Virus record (IMG/VR): IMGVR_UViG_3300023202_000336
Location: 96,001 to 160,000 of that record
From: a virus
DNA length: 64,000 nucleotides
Direction: 5' to 3' (one strand)
Part shown: one piece after another, positions 4,005 through 64,000 of the stretch
Layout of the letters: each line of letters begins with the position of its first letter
Position numbering within the stretch: position 1 is the first letter of the stretch
Notes under the pieces: model-generated
The model's database searches: none
The model's input: only the letters and a program-made list of their open reading frames with translations
What the model was told of the DNA's origin: nothing
Made by a program: the position numbers and the translations under genes

Positions 4005-5662
4005 TCGAGCGGCTGTTTTTCCATCAATTTCGCGAGCTCTTCGTCGGGCTCTTCCGGATCGCGGAGCGTCGAATACTTACCGACCTTCTTCGTGATCCCC
4101 ATATACTCGGCGATCGTATCGGCGTCCCAGCTGATCATTCGAGCACGTTCGGCGATGTTGTACTTCTTATGATGTTCGTGTGGAACACACGAGGGGGTAC
4201 GTTCGTGAAAGAAGTGAGCAAGAGGACCACCTACACGAATTACTTTTGCACCGAGCTTCTGCGCCCGCGCAACCACCTCGTCATCCTCTGCGCCCCAGCC
4301 ACGGAAAAGCTCAGAAAAACCACGAATATGACGAAGGAAAGAAGTACGGTGAAGGCAAATACCGCCGCCAATAACCTGATCAAAAGCATGGTCATAATTC
4401 CTCGGGTCGTTTACGGCGCTGAAGTCGAACTCTCCGTATTTTGCGTCTCGAATGAACTTTCGATGAAGATGATAGAAGATAGAATAAGGCATTGCGATAT
4501 CGGCGTCGCCTTCGACGATATTTTCGTACGCTGTTTGAAGACTCTGCCCTGGGATGATAGTATCGGTATCCCACACTGCTATGGCTTTTGACTCGATCCA
4601 CGGAAGTACCGTATTGAAGGGGCGGCCACGGCACCACACTTCAGCTTTACTTCGTTGTACGAATACGTAGCGGATACGATCATTATCTTTGAAAAAGTTG
4701 AAGAGCTTCGGTTCATCGTCTACTTCTACTACGTAAAGTAATGGTACGTGAAGTCTTTTCGTTACGTACTCTGACACTACTAACAGGTTCTCGAGTCTAT
4801 CGGTCGAATCGATTTTCACGGGCATGATTGCGGTGAGTTCGTTGAGCATAGTTTCGGCCCCTACTGTATTACAGGAATTCGACGCGACATTTTTCGGTCT
4901 TTCTAGGAACTGGCGAGCAGCGACGTTAAAGGTCGTATCTTTTTCAAAGATATCTGATTCACGTATATGTTTAAGGAACGGCTCATACGCCACCTTTTGA
5001 CATAGATCTATTACGTAGGACTGTGAAAAGTTAACGTTGTTTTCGTATAACATAATACGCCCCTGGTCGTCCCAAGTATTTCGGCCGAAGCCATTCAGAA
5101 TCACCCCAGATACAAGCTCTGGATATTTTGATCTGAGCGCCGTCGTGACTTCTCCGGTGTATATCCCCCATCCTTTCAGAATATAGTGCGCGTAAGTAAG
5201 ATAGATTTTTAGAAACTCACTACCAGCCGGTGCTAAAAGTCCGCTGGTCATCAAACGCTGTGAGCCATCAGAGAGGTATTCCCATGGTACAAGGCACTTA
5301 TTAGTATTCAGAAACGGTTTAAGATCTTTGAGGAACAAAGTATCTATATCGTAATAGACCCCGCCCCGTTCGTAAACGATTTCAACTCTTGCAAGGTTTG
5401 AGATAGCTGCGTGGTTCGGCATCGTTTCGCCGTTAATTTCTCGTTTAAAGTTGTAGTACTCGACATTGGCATACTTTTTAGCGCTGTTCCAATACTCGTT
5501 ATCCTCCGGTTCCGGGCCGTCAATATATATTGTAATCGATTCCGGATCCTGCGTATCGTAACATGATTTAATACTTAGGTAATGATAAAGACAAAACGGT
5601 TTAGCATCCTTACCGTTAACAGGGAGTACGAGGAATATAAAATGGAATTTTTTTGGAATCAT
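4001..5662 (-). CDS. Two-domain glycosyltransferase (N-terminal DxD sugar-binding/GT32-like, C-terminal GT2/GT7-like)
   Basis: ERGGVYYDIDTLFLK (DxD); WDTDTII and FRGWGAEDDEV motifs. Confidence 0.8.
   Translation of the reverse strand: MIPKKFHFIFLVLPVNGKDAKPFCLYHYLSIKSCYDTQDPESITIYIDGPEPEDNEYWNSAKKYANVEYYNFKREINGETMPNHAAISNLARVEIVYERGGVYYDIDTLFLKDLKPFLNTNKCLVPWEYLSDGSQRLMTSGLLAPAGSEFLKIYLTYAHYILKGWGIYTGEVTTALRSKYPELVSGVILNGFGRNTWDDQGRIMLYENNVNFSQSYVIDLCQKVAYEPFLKHIRESDIFEKDTTFNVAARQFLERPKNVASNSCNTVGAETMLNELTAIMPVKIDSTDRLENLLVVSEYVTKRLHVPLLYVVEVDDEPKLFNFFKDNDRIRYVFVQRSKAEVWCRGRPFNTVLPWIESKAIAVWDTDTIIPGQSLQTAYENIVEGDADIAMPYSIFYHLHRKFIRDAKYGEFDFSAVNDPRNYDHAFDQVIGGGICLHRTSFLRHIRGFSELFRGWGAEDDEVVARAQKLGAKVIRVGGPLAHFFHERTPSCVPHEHHKKYNIAERARMISWDADTIAEYMGITKKVGKYSTLRDPEEPDEELAKLMEKQPLD
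4822..4850. repeat. 29-bp direct repeat, copy 1 (copy 2 at 5709-5737)
   Basis: gcatgattgcggtgagttcgttgagcata vs gcatgattgcggtgagttcgtttagcata, 28/29 identical. Confidence 0.9.
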
Positions 5663-5708
5663 ATCGTTCCCGTGACGTTTATATAGTTAAGTGGTTCGAT
5701 AAAATACA

Positions 5709-5737
5709 GCATGATTGCGGTGAGTTCGTTTAGCATA
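5709..5737. repeat. 29-bp direct repeat, copy 2; start of a truncated MLNELTAIM remnant on the minus strand
   Basis: Matches 4822-4850. Confidence 0.9.
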
Positions 5738-5802
5738 TGATAAGTTATCGAAAACCCAACCGGGCTTATCAGCAAGTAAAAGTATTTTCATGGCGGTGCC
5801 TA

Positions 5803-6423
5803 TTAGCGTCTAGTTAGGGAAATCCAGGTAGCCTGTTCAGTAACGTCATCTTGTAAAAACAACGGATCGTTAGTAGCAAGTACTATATGTCTCCCCATGT
5901 TACGGGCCAAATATCTATCCGCTGGACAGTTATCGCTTTTAATAGCGCTATCACGGCATGCCTTTGATATTACTTTTAGAGAGTTCTCGACATAACTTTC
6001 AGTAACATGTAACACAGCATGAGTACCACACATATTAAGTATCCGTATACATTTAGAGCTATATTTATATATCGCTACTTTTCCTAGTTCAGAGTGACCG
6101 GGCCCTACTGGGCCATATAGAGAGTGGCCTAAGTATACGCGGTCTGTTTCGTCCGGTATATCTATGATAGGAGTATACCACCCTGTTTCTTTTGCGTCAT
6201 CTTCGAGTACCAAGGCCGGCAGTCTACCGCGTATGTAGCAGGCGGCATGGAAGGCAGCAAGGTTGGCACCAAGATATTTCTTTCTACTCTTAACCCCCGG
6301 GATTCTTTCGTGACGTGTAATACCAAGTCTCTCAAACATATTTTCGATGTTTTTACGACGCGCTACATCTTGATCTAAGTTAATGTAAAATACATTAACA
6401 TCTTTCCTGAGGTCGAGTTTCAT
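5803..6423 (-). CDS. Glycosyltransferase family 25-like protein
   Basis: FYINLDQDVARRKNIE and LVLEDDA motifs; start moved to ATG 6423, which overlaps the upstream gene stop (ATGA). Confidence 0.7.
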   Translation of the reverse strand: MKLDLRKDVNVFYINLDQDVARRKNIENMFERLGITRHERIPGVKSRKKYLGANLAAFHAACYIRGRLPALVLEDDAKETGWYTPIIDIPDETDRVYLGHSLYGPVGPGHSELGKVAIYKYSSKCIRILNMCGTHAVLHVTESYVENSLKVISKACRDSAIKSDNCPADRYLARNMGRHIVLATNDPLFLQDDVTEQATWISLTRR

Positions 6424-7646
6424 ATCATCCCCATCAATCGTAACCACTCGTTTGCAGTTTGTTTCGGTGAAGACTGCACGACTGGAGGCTGCACGTTGTT
6501 TACGGAATGCTCCCTGATTGTTTCAGCAATCATTTCAGCCGCCTCACGCGGATCGACGGTACGAATATACGAGTCGGGAGTATGTTCTGTTTCCCGCCCG
6601 GGATACCATTCGAAACGTGACGCTTCCAGCTCGATACCTCGTCCGTCGATGATCTCACCGGTTACGAAATCGTTCGGTCCAGCGACAAGAGTTCCAGCCG
6701 ACATCGCTTCTGCTACCGTAAAGTTCCAGCTATTTTTAAGTGAAGTGTCGAGTACGAGATCGCACGCGTTGTAGAGGTAGTTCATCTCTTGATCCGAAAG
6801 TCCTGGGGCTTTAGTCTTCTGATCGAAGAATCCGTATCCGAGTAGTATATCGTCCTCGAGTTCCAACTCGTTTCCGATCACGAGTGACTCGATATCGAGC
6901 CATTCGTTCTCGGTGTTAGCGGGTCGATATGGTGACATATGAAGGTAGCCTCTCACTTTTCCATCGATGAACGGATCTTTTTCGTTGAGAGTCTTCAGAT
7001 GCGCGATGGTCTGAATCGCGAGTGGGATCCCCTTCTTGATCGTCGGATTCCCGGAAACCAGTATGAGGAAGTCGTTCGGATCGACCTTTTCGTTGAAGAG
7101 ATGCTGACGAAGTTCCTCGGGCCCGTATTCGCCCGCATGTACGTTGAGTGGACGGAATATCGATGAATCTACCGCAGGCGGGATATACCACATATTCCGC
7201 GCAGCCACGTACGTATCGATATCTACCTTGTTCTCCTGCGTAGCTTCGATGAGTGCTTCCCGATAGGCGGCTCGAGCCATATATGAAGGCGTTACGAAAA
7301 AGTCGAATTTGGATACCGTTTTAAGATACTTCCCGTCGATAAAGGGAGTATCGATAAGGCCGTAACCGATCGAAAGACTATTGCGGACTTCCAGATTATC
7401 TGCCAGATCTTCGAGTGTCCCTATATCGAGTGTATGCGTAATACCCAGCGTTTTCTCAGCAGGTACGGCGTTTAGGACTTCTACGTTATCAGGGGGATCG
7501 AACTGATACGCCCCCTGGTAGGGGGCCCTGACGGCTACGAGAATACGTTCGAAGCGAGGCCCCCAGAGGGGGAGCATATCTTTGAGAAACCGCCCGAAAA
7601 GGTAGTGATCACCCGGGTGGGGGGAGCAGATCATGAGTTGAGCCAT
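6420..7646 (-). CDS. GT-B fold glycosyltransferase (GT4-like)
   Basis: PPAVDSSIFRP, VSGNPTIKKG, YNACDLVLDTSLKNSWNFTVAEAMSAG; start set at MAQLMI. Confidence 0.75.
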   Translation of the reverse strand: MAQLMICSPHPGDHYLFGRFLKDMLPLWGPRFERILVAVRAPYQGAYQFDPPDNVEVLNAVPAEKTLGITHTLDIGTLEDLADNLEVRNSLSIGYGLIDTPFIDGKYLKTVSKFDFFVTPSYMARAAYREALIEATQENKVDIDTYVAARNMWYIPPAVDSSIFRPLNVHAGEYGPEELRQHLFNEKVDPNDFLILVSGNPTIKKGIPLAIQTIAHLKTLNEKDPFIDGKVRGYLHMSPYRPANTENEWLDIESLVIGNELELEDDILLGYGFFDQKTKAPGLSDQEMNYLYNACDLVLDTSLKNSWNFTVAEAMSAGTLVAGPNDFVTGEIIDGRGIELEASRFEWYPGRETEHTPDSYIRTVDPREAAEMIAETIREHSVNNVQPPVVQSSPKQTANEWLRLMGMI

Positions 7647-11705: not shown

Positions 11706-11777
11706 CTCGTTTATGCTCGCTCAGGAGCTTTGTATCTGAGACTCGGGCGAAATCCGTCGAGGCCCCGTATCTGAGAC
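11706..11777 (+). CRISPR. Degenerate mini-array upstream of the cas12 gene: full variant repeat, 16-nt spacer, 3' half repeat
   Basis: atgctcgctcaggagctttgtatctgagac (11713-11742; 26/30 to array core), tcgggcgaaatccgtc, gaggccccgtatctgagac (11759-11777). Confidence 0.75.
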
Positions 11778-11824: not shown

Positions 11825-13549
11825 ATGCAAAGAGGACGCGATCCAGCGAATATTTACAGCTTCGCTGCATACGTATACCGCGAGGATTACGAGCGGACCG
11901 GCGATATACTGTTCAATGCGAACCGGTTCGGAAACGCGCTTGTCGCGATCGAACTCCACCGTCGCGAAGAGTGCGAGAAAATACTTCGACAGTGCTCGAA
12001 GGATTACACGGACGCGCGCGCCAAGGAAGACGCGCTCGTCGACCACCTTCAAGCGATCGGCAAGGAGCTGGGTCGATATCGCCAAAAGAAGCGTGAAAAG
12101 AAGACGCCGAAGGAGCTCCGTGAAAAGTACACGGAGGTCGAAGGGCAACTCGAGAAGCATCGAAACAGCGTGGTGCTTCCGATCCGCCGGGAGCTCTACA
12201 GGAGCCCCAAAGTCAAGAAGCTCCTGAAGAAGCTACATGAGAAGGTAACCGCGGATAAAAAAGAAGCGCGGGCCAACAGGAACTGTTACTGGGGGACGGG
12301 TGGTCTCGTGGAGAAGGCCCACGAGAATGACGGAGAAGGGCCGCCTCCGTCATTCAAGCGATTCGACGGAACCGGTCGAATCGGTGTGCAGCTCCAACAG
12401 CAGTCAGGAGCTCCTCCGTGGACCCCGGAGCGGCTCACGAGAGAGAACACTCTCCTGATGCTCGATGTGGACCAGATGCCCGATGATTTCGTCGGCGCCG
12501 ATCTGAACACAAGGTACAAGAAAAGTCAGAAGAAACGCTGTCCGGTCCGTATGAGGATCGGTTCGGAGAAAGCCAAGCCGGTGTGGCTCGACTTCATGGT
12601 CAAGTTCCATCGACCGCTTCCAGAAGGCTGCAAGATCAAAGCAGCCTGGATCCTTTTCAAAAAGGTCGGGACGCATACGAAAACGTATTTTCAAACGCAA
12701 GTGGCGCGTCCCGAGGGGTTCATGAGAGACGACGTCGCCGATGGCGGCCATGTCGCGGTCGATCTTGGCTGGAGAAAGTTCGAGGACGACCGGGTCCGCG
12801 TCGCCTACTGGCTCGGAGATGATGGAGAACAGGGTGAGATCGCTCTCGATCCGGAGCTCCTGAGCCGAGACCGGAAGAACCGGTCACTCCAGTCGATCTA
12901 CGATCGACAGTTCGACTCCATGAAGGAGCTCCTCCATGGCTGGATCACCGAGCACAAGAGTTCGGTTCCGGAGTGGCTGAAGGAGGAGACGAAGACCCTG
13001 CCGATCTGGAGATCGAGGTCCCGCTTGGCAAAGGTCATCATCAAGTGGAGGAAACACCAGTTCGACGGCGACGTCGAACTGTATAAAACCGCCGAAAAGT
13101 GGCGGAAGAAGGACAAGCACCTCTTCGACTGGCACAAGTTCCAGGCGAGGATCATCAGGGAAAAGCGGAAGGCGCTTTTCCGAGAGGAAGCGGCAAAGCT
13201 CGCGAGGCGTTATCGCTGCGTCATATTCGAAGATATGAAGATCAGCGATATGGCCAAGGACTCACCGGTGAGCAGCGATGACATGGATCCAATCAAGGAT
13301 ATCATGAAACTCGCGTCGCCAGGGGAGCTTCGAATGGAGTTCGAGAGTCGATTCCGAGACTCCACCAGACAGAAGACGAAGAACACGACGAGAGAATGTT
13401 CGGAGTGCGGTTTCGTTGACGGAGAGTTCGACTTCGTGAATCTGTACCACGAATGCCCGAACTGTCAGGCGGAGAAGGATCAAGATCTCAACGCCTGCGA
13501 GAACCTCCTCGCACGAGAGTTGGGGCCACCAGACGCTTCGGCCGCTTGA
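11825..13549 (+). CDS. cas12: Compact type V CRISPR effector, Cas12m/V-U1-like, 574 aa, RuvC triad D-E-D
   Basis: RuvC-I VAVDLGWR (D313), RuvC-II VIFEDMK (E469), Zn finger CSEC...CPNC, RuvC-III DQDLNA (D554); FKRFDGTGRIGVQLQ and KDKHLFDW motifs recall the V-U1 family; adjacent CRISPR array. Confidence 0.85.
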   Translation: MQRGRDPANIYSFAAYVYREDYERTGDILFNANRFGNALVAIELHRREECEKILRQCSKDYTDARAKEDALVDHLQAIGKELGRYRQKKREKKTPKELREKYTEVEGQLEKHRNSVVLPIRRELYRSPKVKKLLKKLHEKVTADKKEARANRNCYWGTGGLVEKAHENDGEGPPPSFKRFDGTGRIGVQLQQQSGAPPWTPERLTRENTLLMLDVDQMPDDFVGADLNTRYKKSQKKRCPVRMRIGSEKAKPVWLDFMVKFHRPLPEGCKIKAAWILFKKVGTHTKTYFQTQVARPEGFMRDDVADGGHVAVDLGWRKFEDDRVRVAYWLGDDGEQGEIALDPELLSRDRKNRSLQSIYDRQFDSMKELLHGWITEHKSSVPEWLKEETKTLPIWRSRSRLAKVIIKWRKHQFDGDVELYKTAEKWRKKDKHLFDWHKFQARIIREKRKALFREEAAKLARRYRCVIFEDMKISDMAKDSPVSSDDMDPIKDIMKLASPGELRMEFESRFRDSTRQKTKNTTRECSECGFVDGEFDFVNLYHECPNCQAEKDQDLNACENLLARELGPPDASAA

Positions 13550-13556
13550 GAATGTT

Positions 13557-13599
13557 TTCGAGCGGCTACGTCGTCGATAAGATGACGTAGTCGCTCGAA
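13557..13599 (+). terminator. 19-bp hairpin directly after cas12 (terminator or accessory RNA element)
   Basis: ttcgagcggctacgtcgtc-gataa-gatgacgtagtcgctcgaa with two G-U wobbles, followed by gtctttta. Confidence 0.65.
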
Positions 13600-13650
13600 G
13601 TCTTTTATGCGATATTGTTTATATATAAAAATTTTGACAGTACTGTTAGA
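13600..13650 (+). promoter_or_regulatory. AT-rich CRISPR leader / putative array promoter
   Basis: tattgtttatatataaaattttgacagtactgt directly before the first repeat. Confidence 0.5.
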
Positions 13651-14229
13651 TATGCCCGCTCAGAGGCTTCGTATCTGAGACGAGGCGCGTGATCTCGAAC
13701 TCCTGGAGTATCCGCGTCGCTTATGCCCGCTCAGAGGCTTCGTATCTGAGACTGGGGCCTGCCAAACCACGCCCGCTTATGCCCGCTCAGAGGCTTCGTA
13801 TCTGAGACAGCGCTAGGTGAAGGCTGGCGGGGATGCCACGACCGTTTATGCCCGCTCAGAGGCTTCGTATCTGAGACGGATCGTTTTGGTGGTATCCCGC
13901 TTATGCCCGCTCAGAGGCTTCGTATCTGAGACGCCAATCCATCCAGGTACCCGCTGATGCCCGCTCAGAGGCTTCGTATCTGAGACTAGGCGCGTGATCT
14001 CGAACTCCTGGAGTATCCGCGCCGCTTATGCCCGCTCAGAGGCTTCGTATCTGAGACCCGCCTCGAGCACCCGTTTCGGGGGCGTTGATATCCCGCTTAT
14101 GCCCGCTCAGAGGCTTCGTATCTGAGACGACCACGCCTGCCGTCTCCGCGAACTCGGCTTCGCCCGCTGATGCCCGCTCAGAGGCTTCGTATCTGAGACG
14201 CCAATCCATCAAAGCCTCGTACCTGAGAC
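13651..14229 (+). CRISPR. CRISPR array: 9 repeats plus a degenerate terminal half repeat; 37-nt consensus CCCGCTTATGCCCGCTCAGAGGCTTCGTATCTGAGAC
   Basis: Invariant 30-nt core ends at 13681, 13752, 13808, 13877, 13932, 13986, 14057, 14128, 14199; stem CTCAGA/TCTGAG; spacers 34, 19, 32, 18, 17, 34, 34, 34 and ~14 nt. Confidence 0.97.
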
Positions 14230-14248: not shown

Positions 14249-14809
14249 ATGCGTTTAGTCTGTGTTCTACTTTTCGTGTTCGGCCTCTGTGCCGAAGAAA
14301 CCTCCAAACTCCCCAGCACCGCCCAGCGTCTCGTCGATCGCCACGATCACGCGCTGGCCGAACTGCGTGAGCGATACCTCGCCGACGTCGCCGACTTGCG
14401 CGAAGACGTCACCCACGACCTCGAGCGGGAACTCAAGAAGACGACCCGTCGCGGCGACCTGGAAGGGGCCCTCGCGATCAAGGAGAAGATCACCGCGCTC
14501 AAGGAGCAAGAGGAGGCGATCGCTGAAGCGCCGACCGATTTCCTCGGACGTAAGAGGCAACCTGAATTCGTCGGAAACACCTACCGATACAGCTCATGGT
14601 GGGTTCGCTTTGATAAGGACGGGTCGGTGAAGACAAACTGGACTTCCCGCGACCTGAGAGACGGTGAATGGAGGATGGAAGGCGAAGAGATCGTCCTCGA
14701 ATTCAACGGGGAAGAGCACGTGAACCGCGCCTTCATCAACGAGGATGGAGATCTGGATTTTAACGGGGCGCAGCTGTTCCGCCTCGAGGAGAAGGACGAG
14801 GACGAATGA
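14249..14809 (+). CDS. Secreted/exported coiled-coil protein, paralog 1
   Basis: Signal-peptide-like N-terminus; LERELKKTTRRGDLEGALAIKEKI; AAGGAG RBS. Confidence 0.75.
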   Translation: MRLVCVLLFVFGLCAEETSKLPSTAQRLVDRHDHALAELRERYLADVADLREDVTHDLERELKKTTRRGDLEGALAIKEKITALKEQEEAIAEAPTDFLGRKRQPEFVGNTYRYSSWWVRFDKDGSVKTNWTSRDLRDGEWRMEGEEIVLEFNGEEHVNRAFINEDGDLDFNGAQLFRLEEKDEDE

Positions 14810-14847
14810 TCCTGATCCTGGATCAGTCGCCAGGAAAGGCGGCGAAG
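14806..14847. repeat. 42-bp exact duplicate of the 5' end of the 15455 gene (truncated remnant)
   Basis: atgatcctgatcctggatcagtcgccaggaaaggcggcgaag is identical at 14806-14847 and 15455-15496. Confidence 0.95.
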
Positions 14848-14882
14848 GCATACGCAGACAACGACCTCGTGGAGGAAGAACC

Positions 14883-15458
14883 GTGCGAATTCTGATGGCT
14901 ACGCTATTCTTGTTGCCGACCCTCTCCCTGTCCTCCGAGGAGGAGCAGGACCCGATGCCCGCGTCTGCCAAACGGACCGTGGCCCAGCACGATCGCGAGG
15001 TGCAGCGCCTCAAAGAACGCTACCTGTCCGACCTCGCCGAAATCCGCGAAGACACCCTTCGCGACCTCGAGCGTGACATGGAAAAGACGACCCGTCGCGG
15101 CGACCTCGAAGGGGCCCTTGCGATCAAGGAGAAGATCACTGCGCTCGAGGAGCAAGAAGAAGAGATCGCTGAGGCACCGACGGATTTCCTCGGGAACGCG
15201 AAGAAGCCGTTTTTTGCTGGTAGAACTTTTAACCATGTGCGCGGTGGTGGTTACCATATCGCATTTTCGGAGGATGGAACGTTGACGACGACGAACTGGG
15301 GCCACAGGTACAACGTCGGCGAATGGACCTTTGAGGACGGAACTATCCACATGGTTTTCGAGAACGGCGGTAACCCACATGAAGCAGAGGTAGATCCAGA
15401 AAACCAGAGGCTCACCTTCATGAACGGTGACGTTTACGTGATCTCGGAAGACAAATGA
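14883..15458 (+). CDS. Secreted/exported coiled-coil protein, paralog 2
   Basis: GTG start after GGAGG; signal-peptide-like N-terminus; shares TTRRGDLEGALAIKEKITAL...EAPTDFLG with paralog 1; different C-terminal domain. Confidence 0.75.
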   Translation: MRILMATLFLLPTLSLSSEEEQDPMPASAKRTVAQHDREVQRLKERYLSDLAEIREDTLRDLERDMEKTTRRGDLEGALAIKEKITALEEQEEEIAEAPTDFLGNAKKPFFAGRTFNHVRGGGYHIAFSEDGTLTTTNWGHRYNVGEWTFEDGTIHMVFENGGNPHEAEVDPENQRLTFMNGDVYVISEDK

Positions 15459-16012
15459 TCCTGATCCTGGATCAGTCGCCAGGAAAGGCGGCGAAGTGCT
15501 ACGCGGATAGAGATATTTCGAGAGGAGTAAATGACGTTATAGAAGTTCTCGAAAACGTGTACCTTCGCCGCCTTCGGCGCGATTATGATGACTCGTCTCC
15601 ATTCGTATCGTGGTGCGGTCTTACGTATCGTAACTTCATGTGGCTTTATTGGCTCGGTTGGTTTCTCGGCATCGAGTACTTCGTGTTAAAAGATAAAGAT
15701 CATAAAAATTCTCTGAAGCTAGATAGCATCAGAACGGAATACGAAAAGCTATCGAAAGGGATGAAGAGACCGCTTCCTCTTTCGTCGTGGCCTCAATCAC
15801 CGTTACCAGCAAAGTTTCGTATGCCGCTCTCAGAGTCGGATCTTCATCCAGCTTCAAAAGGTGACGCGCATCCAGCCGTGTTCGCCTACAGAAACTACTA
15901 CCAGACGTTTCCGGATCGCGAGTGGAGACGTCGAGAAAAACCGTTGTGGTGGGATCCGGCAAGTGCTGAAGATCCCGACGATTTCACCGAGACGATCATG
16001 GCGGTCGTCTAA
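15455..16012 (+). CDS. Pyrimidine-dimer DNA glycosylase (DenV/Pyr_excise)-like protein, divergent
   Basis: MILILDQSPGKAAKCYADRDI N-terminus, WLYWLGWFLGIEY and AYRNYY resemble this family; the usual HxNHP segment is not evident. Confidence 0.45.
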   Translation: MILILDQSPGKAAKCYADRDISRGVNDVIEVLENVYLRRLRRDYDDSSPFVSWCGLTYRNFMWLYWLGWFLGIEYFVLKDKDHKNSLKLDSIRTEYEKLSKGMKRPLPLSSWPQSPLPAKFRMPLSESDLHPASKGDAHPAVFAYRNYYQTFPDREWRRREKPLWWDPASAEDPDDFTETIMAVV

Positions 16013-16024
16013 TTACGCGGAGGA

Positions 16025-16627
16025 ATGATGACGAAAACGCGTAGAAAAATGGTTGAGGTTTTAAATACATCGCTTCTCGATTTGGAAGATCTTGCGCTCA
16101 AAAGATTAGAAGAACGGAAGTTACCGGGTGATCCCAGTATTCCAGACGGTCTCCGTAGAGCTATAGAGGCGTTATCGAGAGCTGATCTGAAACCTGTTAC
16201 TAAGGAGTCGATTTGCGATGCTATGGCAGAATTGGCGCAGTTTCCTATATCAGATCCCGGCTATATAGCCTTCCGTAATAGTAAGTTAGATATAGGGGCA
16301 AGTGTACTCGTTGGTACACCGATTTACGTGAAAGCGAAGCGTAATCCGAATAATCATAATTATGCGACTGGCCACGTGTTTTTTGCAAGTTCAAATATCG
16401 ATAATACTTGGTCGTTAGGTATATTAAACAGCGGCACTATTGGTTTGGGAAATAGTCCTCCCGATTCTTTCGATGGAGTAGAGAGTTATTATCTCAGAAT
16501 AGCTACCGCAGACGAGGTACGTAGGACCATAACCGTTATGGTACAGATTATTAACCGCGAAGCTGTCGAAGTTAAAACCATGGGAATAATAGTAGGTTAC
16601 TTAGATACAGCTTTAAAAGAATTGTAA
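16025..16627 (+). CDS. Hypothetical protein (200 aa)
   Basis: GGAGG RBS; long ORF. Confidence 0.65.
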   Translation: MMTKTRRKMVEVLNTSLLDLEDLALKRLEERKLPGDPSIPDGLRRAIEALSRADLKPVTKESICDAMAELAQFPISDPGYIAFRNSKLDIGASVLVGTPIYVKAKRNPNNHNYATGHVFFASSNIDNTWSLGILNSGTIGLGNSPPDSFDGVESYYLRIATADEVRRTITVMVQIINREAVEVKTMGIIVGYLDTALKEL

Positions 16628-16647
16628 GCAGTATTCTTTTGTTGATT

Positions 16648-16677
16648 ATGCCCGCTTAGGAGTTGCGTATCTGAGAC
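16648..16677 (+). repeat. Solitary variant CRISPR repeat (copy B)
   Basis: atgcccgcttaggagttgcgtatctgagac, 25/30 to array core; stem kept via G-U pairs. Confidence 0.85.
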
Positions 16678-16691
16678 AAAGCAACCAACAG

Positions 16692-16718
16692 CGACCCACT
16701 GGGTCGTTTTTCTTTTTT
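16692..16718 (+). terminator. Intrinsic terminator 14 nt after solo repeat B
   Basis: cgaccc-act-gggtcg followed by tttttctttttt. Confidence 0.7.
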
Positions 16719-16733
16719 ACGGGAGGATTACCT

Positions 16734-17378
16734 ATGGCAAGACTGAGCCAAAAAGAAGTCATCAACACGATTCGCGATTGCTACGGCGATTTCGAATCGG
16801 TAAGGGAGGGCGATAACGTCCGGGCCTACATCGGCCCGGATATCGAGGTCGTCGTTCCCCCTGGCGGCCCATTCAAGGACCCCGTCGTGGTCAGCGTTCC
16901 CGAGGAACGTATGCACTACGAGTTTCCGATTACCGCGGGTGGCATCGGCGATGCGGTCTTCTTCTTGAGAAAGAAGACCGCATCGCTGAAGGTCAAAGAC
17001 GGCAAGCGGCTCAAGAAAAACGAGCTGATCGCCCGTCGTGCCCTGTGGATGGCCTTCAAGGCCGCAGTCCCGCTCGAGAGCAAAATCCTCCACGTCGAAG
17101 ACGAGGAGGTGCTTTCCGAGAAGGAGCTGTGGAAGAAGGTGCAACCGAGCAGAACCGAAACGAAGTGGTCCATATTTCTCCGGTACCACTTCGGTCGGGC
17201 GCTCAACCTCAGCATCTGCTGGAACCGGGACGAGGTATGGATCGAACCCGACATCCTGACTCCCGGACGGCAGTCCTGGGTGAGTTCGTACAAGAGTGGA
17301 AGGGATCTCATCGCGAAAGCGATCGAATCAATCCGCGACGAGATCAAGGCACTGCGCGGTGCAGTGATTTTCAGGTGA
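16734..17378 (+). CDS. Hypothetical protein (214 aa)
   Basis: GGAGG RBS; GC3-rich codon usage. Confidence 0.7.
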   Translation: MARLSQKEVINTIRDCYGDFESVREGDNVRAYIGPDIEVVVPPGGPFKDPVVVSVPEERMHYEFPITAGGIGDAVFFLRKKTASLKVKDGKRLKKNELIARRALWMAFKAAVPLESKILHVEDEEVLSEKELWKKVQPSRTETKWSIFLRYHFGRALNLSICWNRDEVWIEPDILTPGRQSWVSSYKSGRDLIAKAIESIRDEIKALRGAVIFR

Positions 17379-17380
17379 TC

Positions 17381-18496
17381 ATGAAAGGTTGGAAAGAGCT
17401 ACGGCCGAATGGTCGCCAACTTGCCGAGTACTGCGGAGAAGACGGAATCGGGTTCGACTATATCCGTTTCTCCAAAGGACCCGGCAGAACCGAGGCGAAG
17501 GAATTCGCCTCGGAAGAATCCCTCGCCGAATTCCTCGATTCAGGAGGTTTTACGCGATTTCCCTGCGTGTACGTAAAAGCACGAGGATACAAATCAAAGC
17601 GTAAAGCCAGAGTCCATGTCGGTGAGGGGACGCTCGTGGTAGCCATGGAGAACGGTATCACCGTTTCTCGCATGAGAGTTACCGTGAGCAACAGCTACCA
17701 AGAGGAGAGCTACGTGAGGGACAAAAAAGAGTCTCTGCAGGTGCGCAGAGAAAAAGTTCTCGACCGCTTGAGAGTGGTCGAGGCCAACGAGAGTAATACA
17801 GGCGCTGAATCTGCGTTGGGTTCGCGCTACCGTCATCAACTCAGTGAGATTGAGAAAGCAATTTCACGTGCCGAGGAAAGGGACGAAATGTCCGACATCG
17901 ATAAGACCGAAACCGAGATCGAGAAGACCGAGGTCAGCAAGGCCATCGAACCCCACGAGGAGCAGGAGAAGGCGATCGAGCGCAGCCTCGCGCGTGTCTC
18001 CGCCAGCGACGACGACAAGGGCAAGGCCAAGGAGGCCGAGAAGCCCGCGGACCGCAAGCGTGACCATCGCCCGCGCAATCGTCGTCACGAGATCACGGAT
18101 GAAGATGCGTTCAACTTCATCTTCTACGGCTCGCTGACTCCTCCGAGTACCGAGTACCTCCTCGCCGACGAGGTCCTCGATCGTCACGGCGGCTTCCTCG
18201 ACATCGGCGCCATCAAGCGTCTCATGAAGGCCGGCCGGTGCACCATCTGGCTCAACCCGGATGAAAACCCCGTCGAGCAGCTCGGCGGCGAAAAGGTAAA
18301 ACCCACCTACAACGGGTTCCTGGTCAAGAACGACCACGGGAAGTGGGTCGACCCCGAGTGCCGCGTGAACGGCGTGGTGGTGCGGATGGCCGCGATCGAG
18401 ATCGCCTTCAAATACCGGTACTACGATCGTACCGATACCTACATGATGCAGGTGGACTTCCGCATCCACCGCGCTGCACTCGACGTCGTCGAGTGA
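17381..18496 (+). CDS. Hypothetical protein (371 aa), with a possible second in-frame start at 17888
   Basis: Within track ORF 17045..18496; codon bias shifts at MSDIDKTE (17888), which has its own RBS-like ggaaaggga. Confidence 0.55.
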   Translation: MKGWKELRPNGRQLAEYCGEDGIGFDYIRFSKGPGRTEAKEFASEESLAEFLDSGGFTRFPCVYVKARGYKSKRKARVHVGEGTLVVAMENGITVSRMRVTVSNSYQEESYVRDKKESLQVRREKVLDRLRVVEANESNTGAESALGSRYRHQLSEIEKAISRAEERDEMSDIDKTETEIEKTEVSKAIEPHEEQEKAIERSLARVSASDDDKGKAKEAEKPADRKRDHRPRNRRHEITDEDAFNFIFYGSLTPPSTEYLLADEVLDRHGGFLDIGAIKRLMKAGRCTIWLNPDENPVEQLGGEKVKPTYNGFLVKNDHGKWVDPECRVNGVVVRMAAIEIAFKYRYYDRTDTYMMQVDFRIHRAALDVVE

Positions 18497-21090: not shown

Positions 21091-22809
21091 TCATATCGAC
21101 TCGACGAATACCTCAGCGAGCTTCGGCCATCTATTGAGCATGTGATAGATGGCCATCACCCCGAAATTAATGGCGTGTACCACGTCGTCGGTTCTTCTAC
21201 TCATCCGTTTAACGAGTCTCTTCGGAGATCCGCGCGGATTATCGATGGACTCTTCGTAGATGTTAAGGAAGTCACGAAGATGGTCATCGAGGTACTCATC
21301 GTTCTTCGGCAGGAGCACCTGTCCTGACTTGATAAGTTCACAGAGTAGGAGGACCGAGCGTGGTTTGTCGAGTGTAAAGCTCGAACGAGCGCCGATTAGT
21401 TTCGCCGGCTTGTTGTAAAAGACGAGCGGTTTAGTAGTAGCGGTAACGCTATAAGTAAAAGGAATTACTCTTTCAGCCGGCCACCCAGCGGCGTTGAGCA
21501 TCTGCTCCTGAACGTTTCCTTGTCCGCCGTAATCGATAGCTACATATTCGGAATGACTCATACGTGCGACGTTTGCGACGAGTTCCGCTTCGTGTGCATG
21601 ATCTGTCTCATACGGGATCTTATGAAGCCATTTCACTTCTATCACACCCGACGTGAGCACGCCCATCAAGGCGACTGCGGTATTAGATACGAAGTCTTCC
21701 GTATCGGTGGTTTTCTCTTTACCACGTCCGCCCCAGTCAACTCCCACCAGCTGCATGATGTACTGACCGTGAGGCATGTTCTCAGGGTGACACGGTTCGA
21801 CCTTACATGCTTCGCGAATCTGTTCGGCGGTAATAACTTTCGCACCGACGTCGTACGACTCTCCGAGAATCTCGTTATGAAAGACATATGCGGGCTTGTT
21901 CTTCTGAACTTCGAGTATTTCCTGCCACGAATTCGGAGATTCGTAGTGCATAGGAAGGGTCGGTTGTGAGACGTGATATCCTGCGAATTTAGCCCGGCGC
22001 TCGGGAAAATCGTGAACGAAAAATCCGAGCTTACTATTCAGCGGCTTACCGCACTTAGAGCATACGAGCGTCTTGGACCCTAACATCTGAAGCAAGTCAC
22101 CATCGACCGCCGATCGGTTTACACGTTTGCATCCGATTTCCTGACACGGTATATGCCATATCCCTTGAGAAGAGTCCTCCCAGTACAGCTGTATCGGATT
22201 ATCAAATGTTTTCGGCGTACCCGTCATTCGCATGATTTTAAACGGAGACGCACCCATACAGGCTTCGATGATAGGTATGTCCTCGATAGCGAAATCCTGG
22301 GTTTCATCGAGATCTACTTCGTCTGCAGGAACTCCTCGAATGCGGTTCGGATCCCCGTGTGAGTACATGTAGTAAAGATTCGATTCGTTACCAATGCTTC
22401 TCTGTAGTACAGTATCGATGCTTTTATCTCCGATTATGAACCGCTTCGCAGGAGACGTCGAGAGGAACGGTTTCACGTAGTTCTGACTGAATTTACGTAC
22501 CTGCTCGAAGAGAGGCATGACTGTGAGAATGTTGTAGAACGGTTGCGCAGATGCTCTCAGTATCTGAGACGCCGCCATATTTGTACTTTTCGACGTCTGG
22601 CGCCCGGTACGGAAAATCATACGTCTGGGCATATTTTTCAGGCGAAACATCGGTTCGAAGAGAAAATGAGACCACTCGAGAGAGTACGGTTTTCCTCTTA
22701 AACTAAATAACAGCGGGAGCATCTTTGAAAGTGGGCGATCATCGCAGTGGTCGTATTTTTCGAGATACGACTCGACCTGATCCGCGACCTGTAAGGGACT
22801 CCCCGTCAT
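21091..22809 (-). CDS. terL: Terminase large subunit (GpA-like)
   Basis: Walker A RTGRQTSKST, Walker B ADEVDLDETQD, motif III MTGTPKT, nuclease VGVDWGG...DDVVHA; start set at MTGSP (track ORF extends to 22932, overlapping fic). Confidence 0.85.
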   Translation of the reverse strand: MTGSPLQVADQVESYLEKYDHCDDRPLSKMLPLLFSLRGKPYSLEWSHFLFEPMFRLKNMPRRMIFRTGRQTSKSTNMAASQILRASAQPFYNILTVMPLFEQVRKFSQNYVKPFLSTSPAKRFIIGDKSIDTVLQRSIGNESNLYYMYSHGDPNRIRGVPADEVDLDETQDFAIEDIPIIEACMGASPFKIMRMTGTPKTFDNPIQLYWEDSSQGIWHIPCQEIGCKRVNRSAVDGDLLQMLGSKTLVCSKCGKPLNSKLGFFVHDFPERRAKFAGYHVSQPTLPMHYESPNSWQEILEVQKNKPAYVFHNEILGESYDVGAKVITAEQIREACKVEPCHPENMPHGQYIMQLVGVDWGGRGKEKTTDTEDFVSNTAVALMGVLTSGVIEVKWLHKIPYETDHAHEAELVANVARMSHSEYVAIDYGGQGNVQEQMLNAAGWPAERVIPFTYSVTATTKPLVFYNKPAKLIGARSSFTLDKPRSVLLLCELIKSGQVLLPKNDEYLDDHLRDFLNIYEESIDNPRGSPKRLVKRMSRRTDDVVHAINFGVMAIYHMLNRWPKLAEVFVESI

Positions 22810-22858
22810 TATGCCGCAACTTTTATTGCACAATTGCGAAAATGCAAGGAGCTTTTCG

Positions 22859-23404
22859 ATGACCAAGCCATTACCCCTTGATGTAACGAAACTTAGGGAT
22901 TTCGTGATAGAATCAAATACGGTCGAAGGCATCGTCAGAGACGAGAAAACACTTAAGGAGGAGGTAGAAGCTCACGAGCGACTGCTTCGGTGCAAAAAGG
23001 TCGAGGTTCGAGACGTCGTAAGACTCGTGAACACAGTGCAGCCGAACGCTCAGTTCAGGGATCATCAAGATATCCCGGGAGTCTGCGTGATAGCGAGGGT
23101 GCAGCGTCGGCATCATACCGAGACAGTCGTTATGTCCGAACCTCCAGAGAGTGGACCGCTCATCAGGGCCCGTCTACAAGACGTGCTCGATAAAGTCGAG
23201 AGGATGGAGAACGTTTATACGAATCATCTTCTTTATGAAGAGCTTCACCCTTTTACCGACGGGAACGGTCGTTCAGGACGGGCGGTATGGCTATGGCAGA
23301 TGTTGCGTACTGATATACCGTGGGGTTATCGATTCGAGCTACCGTTCCTGCAGAAGTGGTACTATGACTCGTTCTCTATGCTCGCTCAGGAGCCTCGTAT
23401 CTGA
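22859..23404 (+). CDS. fic: Fic-domain protein (AMPylase-type motif)
   Basis: Canonical HPFTDGNGRSGR; AAGGA RBS before ATG 22859. Confidence 0.9.
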   Translation: MTKPLPLDVTKLRDFVIESNTVEGIVRDEKTLKEEVEAHERLLRCKKVEVRDVVRLVNTVQPNAQFRDHQDIPGVCVIARVQRRHHTETVVMSEPPESGPLIRARLQDVLDKVERMENVYTNHLLYEELHPFTDGNGRSGRAVWLWQMLRTDIPWGYRFELPFLQKWYYDSFSMLAQEPRI

Positions 23405-23407
23405 GAC
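23334..23407 (+). repeat. 73-bp direct repeat copy 1 (fic 3' end plus solitary CRISPR repeat C at 23378-23407)
   Basis: 69/73 identical to 23916-23988; repeat C atgctcgctcaggagcctcgtatctgagac is 26/30 to array core and contains the fic stop codon. Confidence 0.9.
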
Positions 23408-23915: not shown

Positions 23916-23989
23916 TCGAGCTACCGTTCCTGCAGAAGTGGTACTATGACCCGTTCACTATGCTCGCTCAGGAGCTCCGTATCTGAGAT
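23916..23989 (+). repeat. 73-bp direct repeat copy 2, containing solitary CRISPR repeat D (23960-23989)
   Basis: atgctcgctcaggagctccgtatctgagat, 25/30 to array core. Confidence 0.9.
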
Positions 23990-47594: not shown

Positions 47595-48654
47595 GTGCTC
47601 CCTCAAGTTTACGACGGCATCAAAACTGTCGAAACTGGATGTCGTGCTCACCGAGTACGGTCAGGTGGTCAACCGCTTCATCGACCTGTTCTGGGTTGAG
47701 TGCCCAGCCAAGAGCAGGCTACTCAAACCTATCGTGGATTCGGTTGATAGCTGGTTCACTGCCCGTCTCCGTAAGGTTGCTGCTCGTGAAGCCATCGACA
47801 TGGTGAAGGCCGCTAAAGAGCGTTGGGGCGAGAAGGCCGTAAAGCCGACCCACCGTGGACAACGGATGTGCGTCAGTAGCACCATTGCTCGACTGGACGT
47901 TGCCAAGGATTCAACCTTCGACTGCTGGCTGCACCTATCGTCCATCGGCAATGGCATCATCCTCGACCTGCCGATTAAACGGCACAGGCACTTCAACGAT
48001 CTGGCTACTGCCGGTCGTAGGCAAGAGTCTTACATTATCACCAGGGATTCAGTGCAGTTCTGCTTTGAGATCGAAACTGGGCCGAAACAGGAACCGGATC
48101 GCTGTGTCGGTGTTGATACTGGAATCAACGCCTTAGCCAGTTTGTCCACTGGTGATCAGTTAGGCACTGAAATCAAGGTTGGTATCGAACGAATCAAACG
48201 CTGTAAGCACGGAAGCAAAGGTCAGAAGCGAGCCGTTCGTGCGTTGCGACAGCGGATGGATGAAGTCGCCAAAGAGGTGGTTGGAAAAGCCTCGTTGGTT
48301 GCTGTCGAGAACTTGAAGAACATCACGAAGAATACCAAACGCCGCTTGGGTAAAAATATGCGGCGCTCTATCGGTCGTTGGAATGTGCGATACTGGTTGA
48401 CGAGATTGCAGCAAGTCTGTGAACGAAACCGTGTTTCGTTCCGGTCTGTCTCGCCACGCTACACTTCGCAGCAGTGTTCCAAATGTGGCTTCACCGATAG
48501 GAGGAATCGAAACGGTGAGTTGTTCCGTTGCCTCAGTTGTGGCTATGAGGCAAACGCAGATGTGCAGGCATCACGGAACATCCTCACCCGATTCCTTACC
48601 GGACCCTACGGTGCCGGTTGCAAACCTCTCGTGTCCTGTAATGGGATACTTTGA
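47566..48654 (+). CDS. tnpB: IS200/IS605-family TnpB RNA-guided nuclease
   Basis: VGVDTG, AVENL, VSPRYTSQQCSKCG...FRCLSCG...ADVQASRNI; D-E-D triad present. Confidence 0.92.
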   Translation: MNMKISRSSKCSLKFTTASKLSKLDVVLTEYGQVVNRFIDLFWVECPAKSRLLKPIVDSVDSWFTARLRKVAAREAIDMVKAAKERWGEKAVKPTHRGQRMCVSSTIARLDVAKDSTFDCWLHLSSIGNGIILDLPIKRHRHFNDLATAGRRQESYIITRDSVQFCFEIETGPKQEPDRCVGVDTGINALASLSTGDQLGTEIKVGIERIKRCKHGSKGQKRAVRALRQRMDEVAKEVVGKASLVAVENLKNITKNTKRRLGKNMRRSIGRWNVRYWLTRLQQVCERNRVSFRSVSPRYTSQQCSKCGFTDRRNRNGELFRCLSCGYEANADVQASRNILTRFLTGPYGAGCKPLVSCNGIL

Positions 48655-63170: not shown

Positions 63171-63668
63171 ATGAGTGAGCTTATATCACTACGGTTGATA
63201 ATAACTGTACTCGCATTGAGCGCCGGGGCTAGTTATGGAGCCTTGACCAGGCATAGCTTCAAAAGTCTTTATGACAAGGTTTATATAGTTTTCGGTCGCG
63301 TTTTTTATTCGTTTTTTCCGTTCGCACTTTTGTTCACAATTGCTGGTGTATTAGTATTGATAAACGCAATACTATTCCTTCCTGAACCTTTCAAGCTGTG
63401 TTTTTGTATTTTCCTTGGTTTTCCAGCATACGCGGTTGGTAATATATCTGCAGCATGGCTTGCCCGAGTTAGTGTAATATCGGTCCAATGTCCGAATCCG
63501 ACATGCCGGTATATATGTACAAACTGGAGTGCGTTCAATCCACGGCCGGTAATGAAGTGTAAAAGGTGTCACAGTGAGTTCATGTTTCATATGCTCAAGG
63601 ACAATATGGTGTACGCCAAGACACTCCAAGACTGTGCTCGCCGGAGCCTCGTATCTGATGCTCGCTAG
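63171..63668 (+). CDS. Membrane protein with a C-terminal Zn-ribbon-like motif (165 aa)
   Basis: Three hydrophobic segments, then CPNPTC...CKRC. Confidence 0.6.
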   Translation: MSELISLRLIITVLALSAGASYGALTRHSFKSLYDKVYIVFGRVFYSFFPFALLFTIAGVLVLINAILFLPEPFKLCFCIFLGFPAYAVGNISAAWLARVSVISVQCPNPTCRYICTNWSAFNPRPVMKCKRCHSEFMFHMLKDNMVYAKTLQDCARRSLVSDAR

Positions 63669-63685
63669 AGCTTCGTATCTGAGAC
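63634..63685 (+). repeat. Two fused degenerate CRISPR-repeat copies (copy E) over the gene 3' end
   Basis: gtgctcgccggagcctcgtatctga (63634-63658) then atgctcgctagagcttcgtatctgagac (63658-63685). Confidence 0.75.
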
Positions 63686-64000
63686 TGAGATGTAGCTGAG
63701 ACTACAGCCGTTTACACCGTTCCCTCCCCACCCCTCTGCCGAAAGGAAGGCTGATTTTGAGTAAGCAGCACGAACATCTATTTGAAAAAATTTTAGGAGT
63801 AGCCTATGGTACCGCTGGCGCCGAGGGCGAAGAAATACCGAAATCGAAAGCTAAATTTTGGAGTCGCGACGATAATGGTAACTACCTTTGCTTCTATCCG
63901 GAGCTAAACCCACAGAAGCGTCTTGCCCCGGGGGTTTACAAAGTTTACAAAGTACCTATGGGTACTGTATTTCATCGAGACGACGTCAAACGTATTGATA

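Follow-up and report, generated by a model that had tools for sequence, protein, structure and literature searches.

Solitary CRISPR repeats are known to regulate cas genes and, in phages, to serve as decoys for the Cas proteins of the host. The CreR regulators carry spacers partly complementary to a PAM-flanked site in the cas promoter (bioRxiv 10.1101/2023.03.03.530964; 10.1101/2023.03.10.532045); the Racrs mimic the repeats of the host, and their cognate Cas protein is that of the host (PMC10651486). Cas12m enzymes bind DNA but leave it uncut, and they mature their pre-crRNA themselves by a cut upstream of a ~36-nt scaffold, nearly the whole repeat being kept (PMC10442227, PMC11013384). In Cas12m2, a 12-bp intermediate precedes the full 17-bp guide-target duplex (PMC11013384, PMC10442227), and the scaffold of MmCas12m2 combines a 6-bp 'PK' helix, a terminal AC and a short second helix that links the 5' segment with the loop (PMC10442227). 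Phage-borne Cas12m was reported in a 2026 preprint, without dispersed repeats. No paper was found in the literature on a phage scattering its own Cas12m scaffold through its own transcripts, or on Cas12m scaffolds in phage mRNAs.

The DNA analysed here (the window, 64,000 nt) corresponds to positions 96001-160000 of a phage record that is complete, has terminal repeats and measures 180,134 bp; coordinates are those of the window unless marked as genome. It carries a solitary repeat, solo repeat B, followed by 14 nt and an intrinsic terminator. With the standalone repeats beside cas12a and the CreR/crlRNA mini-arrays, the closest elements described so far, it has in common a degenerate repeat that keeps the effector-binding fold and a short spacer-like stretch behind it; its further likeness to the cas12a standalone repeats and CreR is the type V locus, where the effector is one protein and does its own RNA processing. 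However, a promoter target is a property of CreR/crlRNA, and B has no such site in the phage genome. Moreover, B lies 3.1 kb downstream of cas12m and behind four genes, is one of 18 dispersed copies, and belongs to a Cas12m and to a phage. The Racrs come second and are comparable as solitary phage repeats, with a possible small RNA that would occupy a Cas protein without a productive guide. In contrast to them, the phage carrying B owns cas12m and a nine-repeat array with the same repeat, and no promoter of its own was found for B. A first-pass annotation of this DNA had likened the element to such RNA anti-CRISPRs, a comparison that loses its footing in a phage that itself carries the matching effector and array.

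The type V-M crRNA (MmCas12m2, GoCas12m) is alike in its ~36-nt scaffold, the 6-bp helix with AC, the second helix and the effector family, and processing upstream of the scaffold would be expected for B too. Unlike this crRNA, B has 14 nt instead of a guide of 17-20 nt, with a terminator hairpin at the place of the distal guide; its second helix is weakened, and it stands outside the array. The terminal repeat of an array with its trailer offers another likeness: the repeat that has diverged most stands last in the array's unit, and non-spacer sequence and a terminator come after it. In contrast to an ordinary terminal repeat, B has 2.4 kb with four ORFs between itself and the last array repeat.

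Solo repeat B, its terminator and the Cas12m array

Solo repeat B (16641..16677, + strand) is a diverged copy of the 37-nt CRISPR repeat and matches the phage's own array. In an nhmmer search of both strands of the 180,134-bp genome it scored 29.4 bits (E 9.4e-8) with a family model that excluded B, and 19.3 bits (E 1.4e-4) with a model of the array repeats only, ranking 22nd of the 27 full copies and thus among the most diverged. The crRNA-like architecture originally described (one repeat, 14 nt and an intrinsic terminator) was confirmed; the start given for it, 16648, is that of the 30-nt core, and the full repeat begins at 16641.

The 6-bp stem of B (16655-16660 with 16670-16675, + strand) is preserved with four Watson-Crick and two G-U pairs around a loop at 16661-16669, and the terminal AC (16676-16677) follows directly. 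The 3'-terminal 12 nt are identical to the array repeat. The second short helix, with its 5' strand at 16650-16652 (+), is reduced to one G-U pair, one C-G pair and one C/A mismatch, versus three pairs in the array and most of the dispersed copies. In the copy alignment the 5' half of B is of the array type rather than the dispersed type. For the free RNA of B the scaffold stem is not predicted, a 5-bp alternative pairing of the loop with the 14 nt being preferred. With its second helix worn and the scaffold stem not predicted in free RNA, B may be bound poorly by Cas12m, and binding appears plausible from the sequence, perhaps weak. A search of Rfam gave no family.

The spacer position (16678..16691, + strand) is occupied by a 14-nt A/C-rich stretch (8 A, 4 C, 2 G and no T), whose last two bases are able to join the stem of the terminator. 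The latter (16690..16719, + strand) has a G+C-rich stem of 6-8 bp, a 3-nt loop and a T tract at 16707-16718; the core stem pairs 16692-16697 with 16701-16706 and is extendable to eight pairs (five of them G-C) from 16690. It was reported by a consensus scan, with a fold of -11.6 kcal/mol, and a strict scan (perfect stem, at least four G-C pairs and a T run) gave only one other perfect-stem site on the + strand of the whole genome. The terminator of B is among the cleanest intrinsic terminators of this genome. Its module has no other copy in the genome, and no second locus was found at which a scaffold is paired with a canonical terminator.

The unit is intergenic. Upstream, with a gap of 13 nt before the scaffold, lies the stop codon (16625-16627) of a 200-aa ORF (16025..16627, + strand), the last gene of a low-GC island; downstream, a 214-aa ORF (16734-17378) has its ATG at 16734 and a strong ribosome-binding site (RBS) at 16721-16726 (together 16721..16736, + strand). 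In contigs of four metagenome DNA runs no variant is listed at B; three of the runs cover B, two of these the whole unit, and the fourth covers B only in part. Breaks in the assembly of these contigs fall at the repeats.

The presumed scaffold binder is the product of cas12m (11825..13549, + strand; 574 aa). Compared with solved structures, this ORF matched 23vw with an E value of 6e-47, Cas12m2 (8hhl) with 1e-24 and 8pm4 (entry title 'Transposase') with 4e-22, and the D, E, D residues of its RuvC motifs are aligned and conserved versus 23vw. By these matches the effector is a Cas12m, a member of a DNA-binder family, and the earlier assignment of the repeat to type V is correct. A peptide-pattern search of viral contigs found no close relatives of the effector. 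The cas12m leader itself carries solo repeat A with a 16-nt spacer and a 3' half repeat (11706..11777, + strand), the ATG following 47 nt downstream.

A strong terminator with a 20-pair stem (13556..13600, + strand) lies in the gap between cas12m and the array, so that transcription of the array must begin separately, in the A+T-rich leader (13601-13644, + strand). The array (13645..14229, + strand) consists of nine full 37-nt repeats (13645-14199), followed by a short spacer and a 3' half repeat that ends at 14229, 19 nt ahead of the ATG at 14249. Its spacers are 17-35 nt long, two of them duplicated, and the last one measures 11-14 nt depending on the chosen start of the terminal half repeat; the observation that it equals the 14 nt of B in length is therefore roughly right. 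Among the ORFs profiled around the array, 4 upstream and 10 downstream of it, neither cas1 nor cas2 was seen. The array spacers had no protospacers in exact scans of viral contigs, blastn against phage records returned only a related repeat, and self-target searches with all array spacers and all post-scaffold stretches gave chance-level matches only.

Two weak leads to spacer targets were noted. The duplicated spacers 1 and 6 (13682-13716, 13987-14021) have a 24-nt match with the flank ATTC in the Woeseiaceae MAG JBFFOM010000030 (L029:4650-4673), falling in a 691-aa ORF without a Pfam family; in a Woeseiaceae sample, near-matches to the first 20 nt of spacer 1 (up to three mismatches) were several-fold commoner than for the reversed control. 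The first 22 nt of spacer 8 (14129-14162) match an alanine racemase gene, antisense and in its N-terminal domain, with the flank CCTT, on a 2-kb metagenome contig (L030:1201-1222), and have no match in the Woeseiaceae genome. Together, these leads indicate no common host.

Between the array and 16690 only a weak terminator-like site, within the 200-aa ORF, was seen on the + strand. With a strong terminator before the array and none strong until 16690, the array, the four ORFs at 14249-16627 and B look like one unit. As far as its boundaries can be inferred from terminators, B seems to close this transcription unit, which would begin at the array leader. No sigma-70-like site adjoins B over the ~200 nt covered upstream, a consensus that may not be the promoter type of the phage. 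Lacking an adjoining promoter-like site, B does not appear to be the self-contained unit that it had been taken for, and the 5' end of its RNA would need Cas12m processing of a longer transcript. On the other side of the terminator, only ~15 nt lead from the T tract to the RBS of gene 16734, which leaves no space for a promoter, so expression of this gene depends on read-through. To this extent, the earlier idea that the unit could attenuate read-through into 16734 is supported.

The GC content, ~0.58 in the surroundings, drops to 0.41-0.47 over ~15500-16700 and recovers immediately past the terminator; B, its terminator and the two ORFs before them may therefore have come in together. Relatives of the ORFs flanking B were found only as near-identical copies, the sole database match of the 200-aa ORF being a 99%-identical cluster (3 sequences, 4.2-kb contig). 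Internal duplications of 83-90% identity (14369-14547/15015-15193; 14798-14858/15447-15507) are present in the ORFs that separate the array from B, and metagenome contigs carry variant copies in this block, which indicates a gene block evolving by duplication.

Dispersed scaffold copies in this and other phages

Profile searches of the whole genome recovered 27 full scaffold copies, nine of them array repeats and the other 18 dispersed; every copy is on the + strand, and the - strand has none. The dispersed copies are clustered at genome 107-120 kb and at genome 159-180 plus 0-3 kb, with several 3' fragments besides. With up to one mismatch allowed, the last 11 nt of the repeat have 37 occurrences genome-wide on the + strand, versus a single one on the - strand; in a crude ORF map, 166 of 205 ORFs are on the + strand. 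The copies are mostly intergenic and oriented along the direction of the genes, all being on the coding strand, and by 9-mer counting the scaffold was the sole widely dispersed intergenic motif found. At 7 of 20 listed sites, some loci counting twice, the last scaffold-derived base lies 14-28 nt ahead of an RBS-bearing start codon; the gene after the array is included among the seven, and an eighth candidate is a doubtful 59-aa ORF. For B the distance to the start codon is 56 nt, or 28 nt once the terminator module of ~28 nt is subtracted.

Within the window, one dispersed copy (23371..23407, + strand) covers the end of a Fic-domain ORF (22811-23404), and a second (23953..23989, + strand) has ~44 nt of 5' flank in common with it, the likeness ending at the 3' end of the scaffold. 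Such a common 5' flank, 31-44 nt long, is found in two pairs of copies, and in both the likeness stops exactly at the scaffold's 3' end. A degenerate scaffold with a partial copy of its last 11 nt (63649..63702, + strand) stands 54 nt before a start codon.

Both helices of the Cas12m2 scaffold, i.e., one of 6 bp ending two bases before the guide and a second one formed by three bases of the 5' segment with the first three loop bases, are kept in the copies. In the 20-copy alignment, 92.7% of the cells are paired, versus at most 52.5% with slid partners. In 15 of the 20 copies a G-U pair tops the stem, which agrees with + strand RNA rather than with a DNA motif, and one pair changes from C-G to U-A between array-type and dispersed-type copies. 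Compensatory changes were found in both helices across four phages, and because the helices are kept in this way, the scaffold copies are, by their sequences, RNA elements.

These changes were seen in the IMG/VR record 3300027832_000009, in L012, in L014 and in virus Rctr197k. The first of them is distantly related, its proteins being 25-34% identical, and its cluster of 13 copies has stems of four kinds and, in the second helix, one replacement by A-U. The phage-like contig L012 has an array with three stem variants, and in the array of virus Rctr197k (KX853510) the second helix is formed by different letters. The distant phage L014, with a Cas12m ~28% identical, has heterogeneous scaffolds, the last one ~25 nt before the cas12m ATG; the spacers of its mini-arrays beside cas12m are 14, 14, 17, 17 and 20 nt long. 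A scaffold before cas12m was not evident in Rctr197k or L011, so that this layout is not universal.

The 13-scaffold cluster (L010, reverse strand, ~5650-7040, equal to ~73-74.3 kb of 3300027832_000009) has spacers of 17-33 nt and adjoins a homologue of the window's 613-aa terminase-like ORF; cas12m was not found in this 87-kb fragment, which is 44% complete. In L012, a scaffold-like element with both helices intact (L012:1997-2032) lies within the cas12m coding sequence.

Possible roles of solo repeat B

Membership of B in a set of 18 dispersed copies makes a cis-acting RNA element, and no longer a trans-acting guide, the likeliest reading. The explanation that we tentatively prefer, at somewhat less than even chances, is that B is a cis-acting site of Cas12m binding and processing at an operon junction, its product being a terminated crRNA-like RNA of ~70 nt. 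Transcription would begin in the array leader and run through the nine array repeats and the four ORFs (14249-16627); scaffold B would then be copied, and the polymerase would mostly stop at the terminator 14 nt further on. We infer that Cas12m would bind scaffold B and cut just upstream of it, as in pre-crRNA, splitting the upstream mRNA from a Cas12m-bound RNA of ~70 nt that consists of the scaffold, the 14 nt and the terminator hairpin. Read-through transcripts would have this Cas12m handle at the start of the 16734-18496 message. B would thus act in cis, through punctuation of the RNA and through Cas12m sitting on the message, and competition with the array guides for Cas12m would be a side effect.

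Should Cas12m bind these sites, a virus would be using a CRISPR effector as a post-transcriptional or operon-punctuating factor. Solo repeat B offers a compact test piece of ~80 nt for this, with a scaffold, a short leader and a terminator, for which one protein and one reporter would be enough. A wider version of the cis-acting reading, which we consider distinctly unlikely, has Cas12m as an RNA-binding regulator of phage messages: the ~18 embedded scaffolds would let Cas12m cut, mark or occlude mRNAs, and B alone would wire this occupancy to a terminator, setting read-through into 16734-18496 and releasing a short-guide ribonucleoprotein.

The small RNA with a 14-nt guide envisaged in the first-pass annotation remains a reasonable prediction as regards the RNA, given the scaffold and the terminator; the guide role is left without a target in the phage genome. 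At up to two mismatches the 14-mer has no match in the 180-kb phage genome. Its 10-nt seed has one match there versus ~0.3 expected, which is at chance level and has the flank GGA (non-T/C), and 12-nt matches in the window are also at chance level (6 versus 3.5 expected). The best partial match (48292-48305, - strand) lies within an ORF. In one candidate host genome (Woeseiaceae) nothing better than two mismatches was found, with fewer matches than for the reversed control. The search for PAM-adjacent targets of the 14 nt thus gave no supported target in the phage genome, and the proposed likeness to CreA/CreR-type guides was not substantiated. In composition (12 of the 14 bases are A or C, none is T), the stretch is similar to the leaders that stand behind other scaffolds before an RBS; on the cis-acting reading it would be an A/C-rich remnant of a translation leader rather than a selected guide.

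Accordingly, it is unlikely that B makes a trans-acting short-guide RNA of the CreR/crlRNA type, which would send Cas12m to host or rival-phage DNA or compete with the array guides. The 14 nt fall short of the 17-bp duplex tied to robust binding by Cas12m2, resemble an ordinary leader and come without a promoter-like site of their own, in addition to the missing matches. Nevertheless, spacers of 14-20 nt are normal in the mini-arrays of related phage Cas12m loci, L014 among them, and the array of the present phage holds spacers of 17-19 nt, which makes the length of 14 nt compatible with a real guide. Moreover, Cas12m binds DNA without cutting it, so a short guide could still act; the 12-bp intermediate of Cas12m2 comes before the full duplex, and the terminator hairpin would supply a defined and protected 3' end.

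Taken alone, B may perhaps be only a worn terminal repeat. The corresponding explanation, that it is the array's old last repeat with its trailer, or came with the low-GC cassette, and is kept for the terminator only, is doubtful. Terminal repeats of CRISPR arrays are typically degenerate, with the array terminator behind them. In line with this, B has an array-type 5' half, a damaged second helix and a place among the most diverged copies, the intervening genes are internally duplicated, and the GC trough ends exactly at the terminator. On the other hand, both substitutions in the stem of B retain pairing as G-U, the 3' 12 nt are untouched, and the scaffold family overall is maintained at gene heads; furthermore, 2.4 kb of coding sequence separate B from the array.

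A Cas12m-sensitive attenuator is very unlikely. In such a device, Cas12m bound to the nascent scaffold would hold the bases behind it, among them the terminator's 5' arm (spacer positions 13-20), and suppress termination, making expression of 16734-18496 dependent on Cas12m. The arm does fall within the 17-20 nt that Cas12m2 holds as guide, gene 16734 is expressible by read-through only, and the distance from scaffold to start codon fits the 14-28-nt class when the terminator module is removed. These are points of geometry, however, and a hairpin from position 13 may still form; the scaffold-terminator pairing also lacks a second locus. In free Cas12 ribonucleoproteins, the PAM-distal part of the guide is usually flexible.

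Least of all, B could be a DNA-level element (a promoter or a cassette-bounding recombination site that coincides with a CRISPR repeat), as might be suggested by the clustering of copies near the genome ends, where early promoters might lie, by the two copy pairs with their sharply ending common flank and by the scaffold's standing as the only widely dispersed intergenic motif, but this is highly improbable, since the two helices, one of them of pseudoknot type, match the Cas12m RNA scaffold and covary across phages, the frequent G-U pairs work solely in + strand RNA, which with the covariation makes the promoter reading unlikely, and the identical sequence is the repeat of the array beside cas12m.

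Other scaffold-derived and repeated sequences

Several loci outside the window carry scaffold-derived sequences in other arrangements. A tandem second copy of the scaffold's last 11 nt, with one or two changes, was seen at genome 161618, 164395, 165142 and 172930 and after genome 168835, i.e., at four or five independent loci. The 11-mer inside every scaffold is preceded by TTC, TCC or CTC, so a guide made of it would match all scaffold loci beside a T/C-rich flank. The copy at genome 172930 has 15 of 16 matches with the array's first repeat-spacer junction. The site around it (genome 172893-173041; L028:2893-3041) has a scaffold, ~12 nt and a very stable hairpin (-33 kcal/mol, z -5.5) without a U tract; the 12 nt are a near-copy of the scaffold's last 11 nt, and a further scaffold then follows, 14 nt before a start codon. 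Exact 11-nt scaffold ends without a scaffold occur on the + strand at 22560-22570 of the window and at genome 167814-167824 (~0.09 expected), one of the two being antisense within the 613-aa ORF.

A second mini-array (genome 165760-165882; L027:6760-6882) consists of one 3' fragment and two full scaffolds with spacers of 17-20 nt. Behind it, ~16 nt lead to a weak hairpin, and a T/C-rich tract longer than 30 nt comes next. At both ends of the genome (179700-180134 and 1-900), the + strand carries long, coding-like 12-nt tandem repeats with a four-residue period, and each of these runs finishes in the same short leader and ATG.
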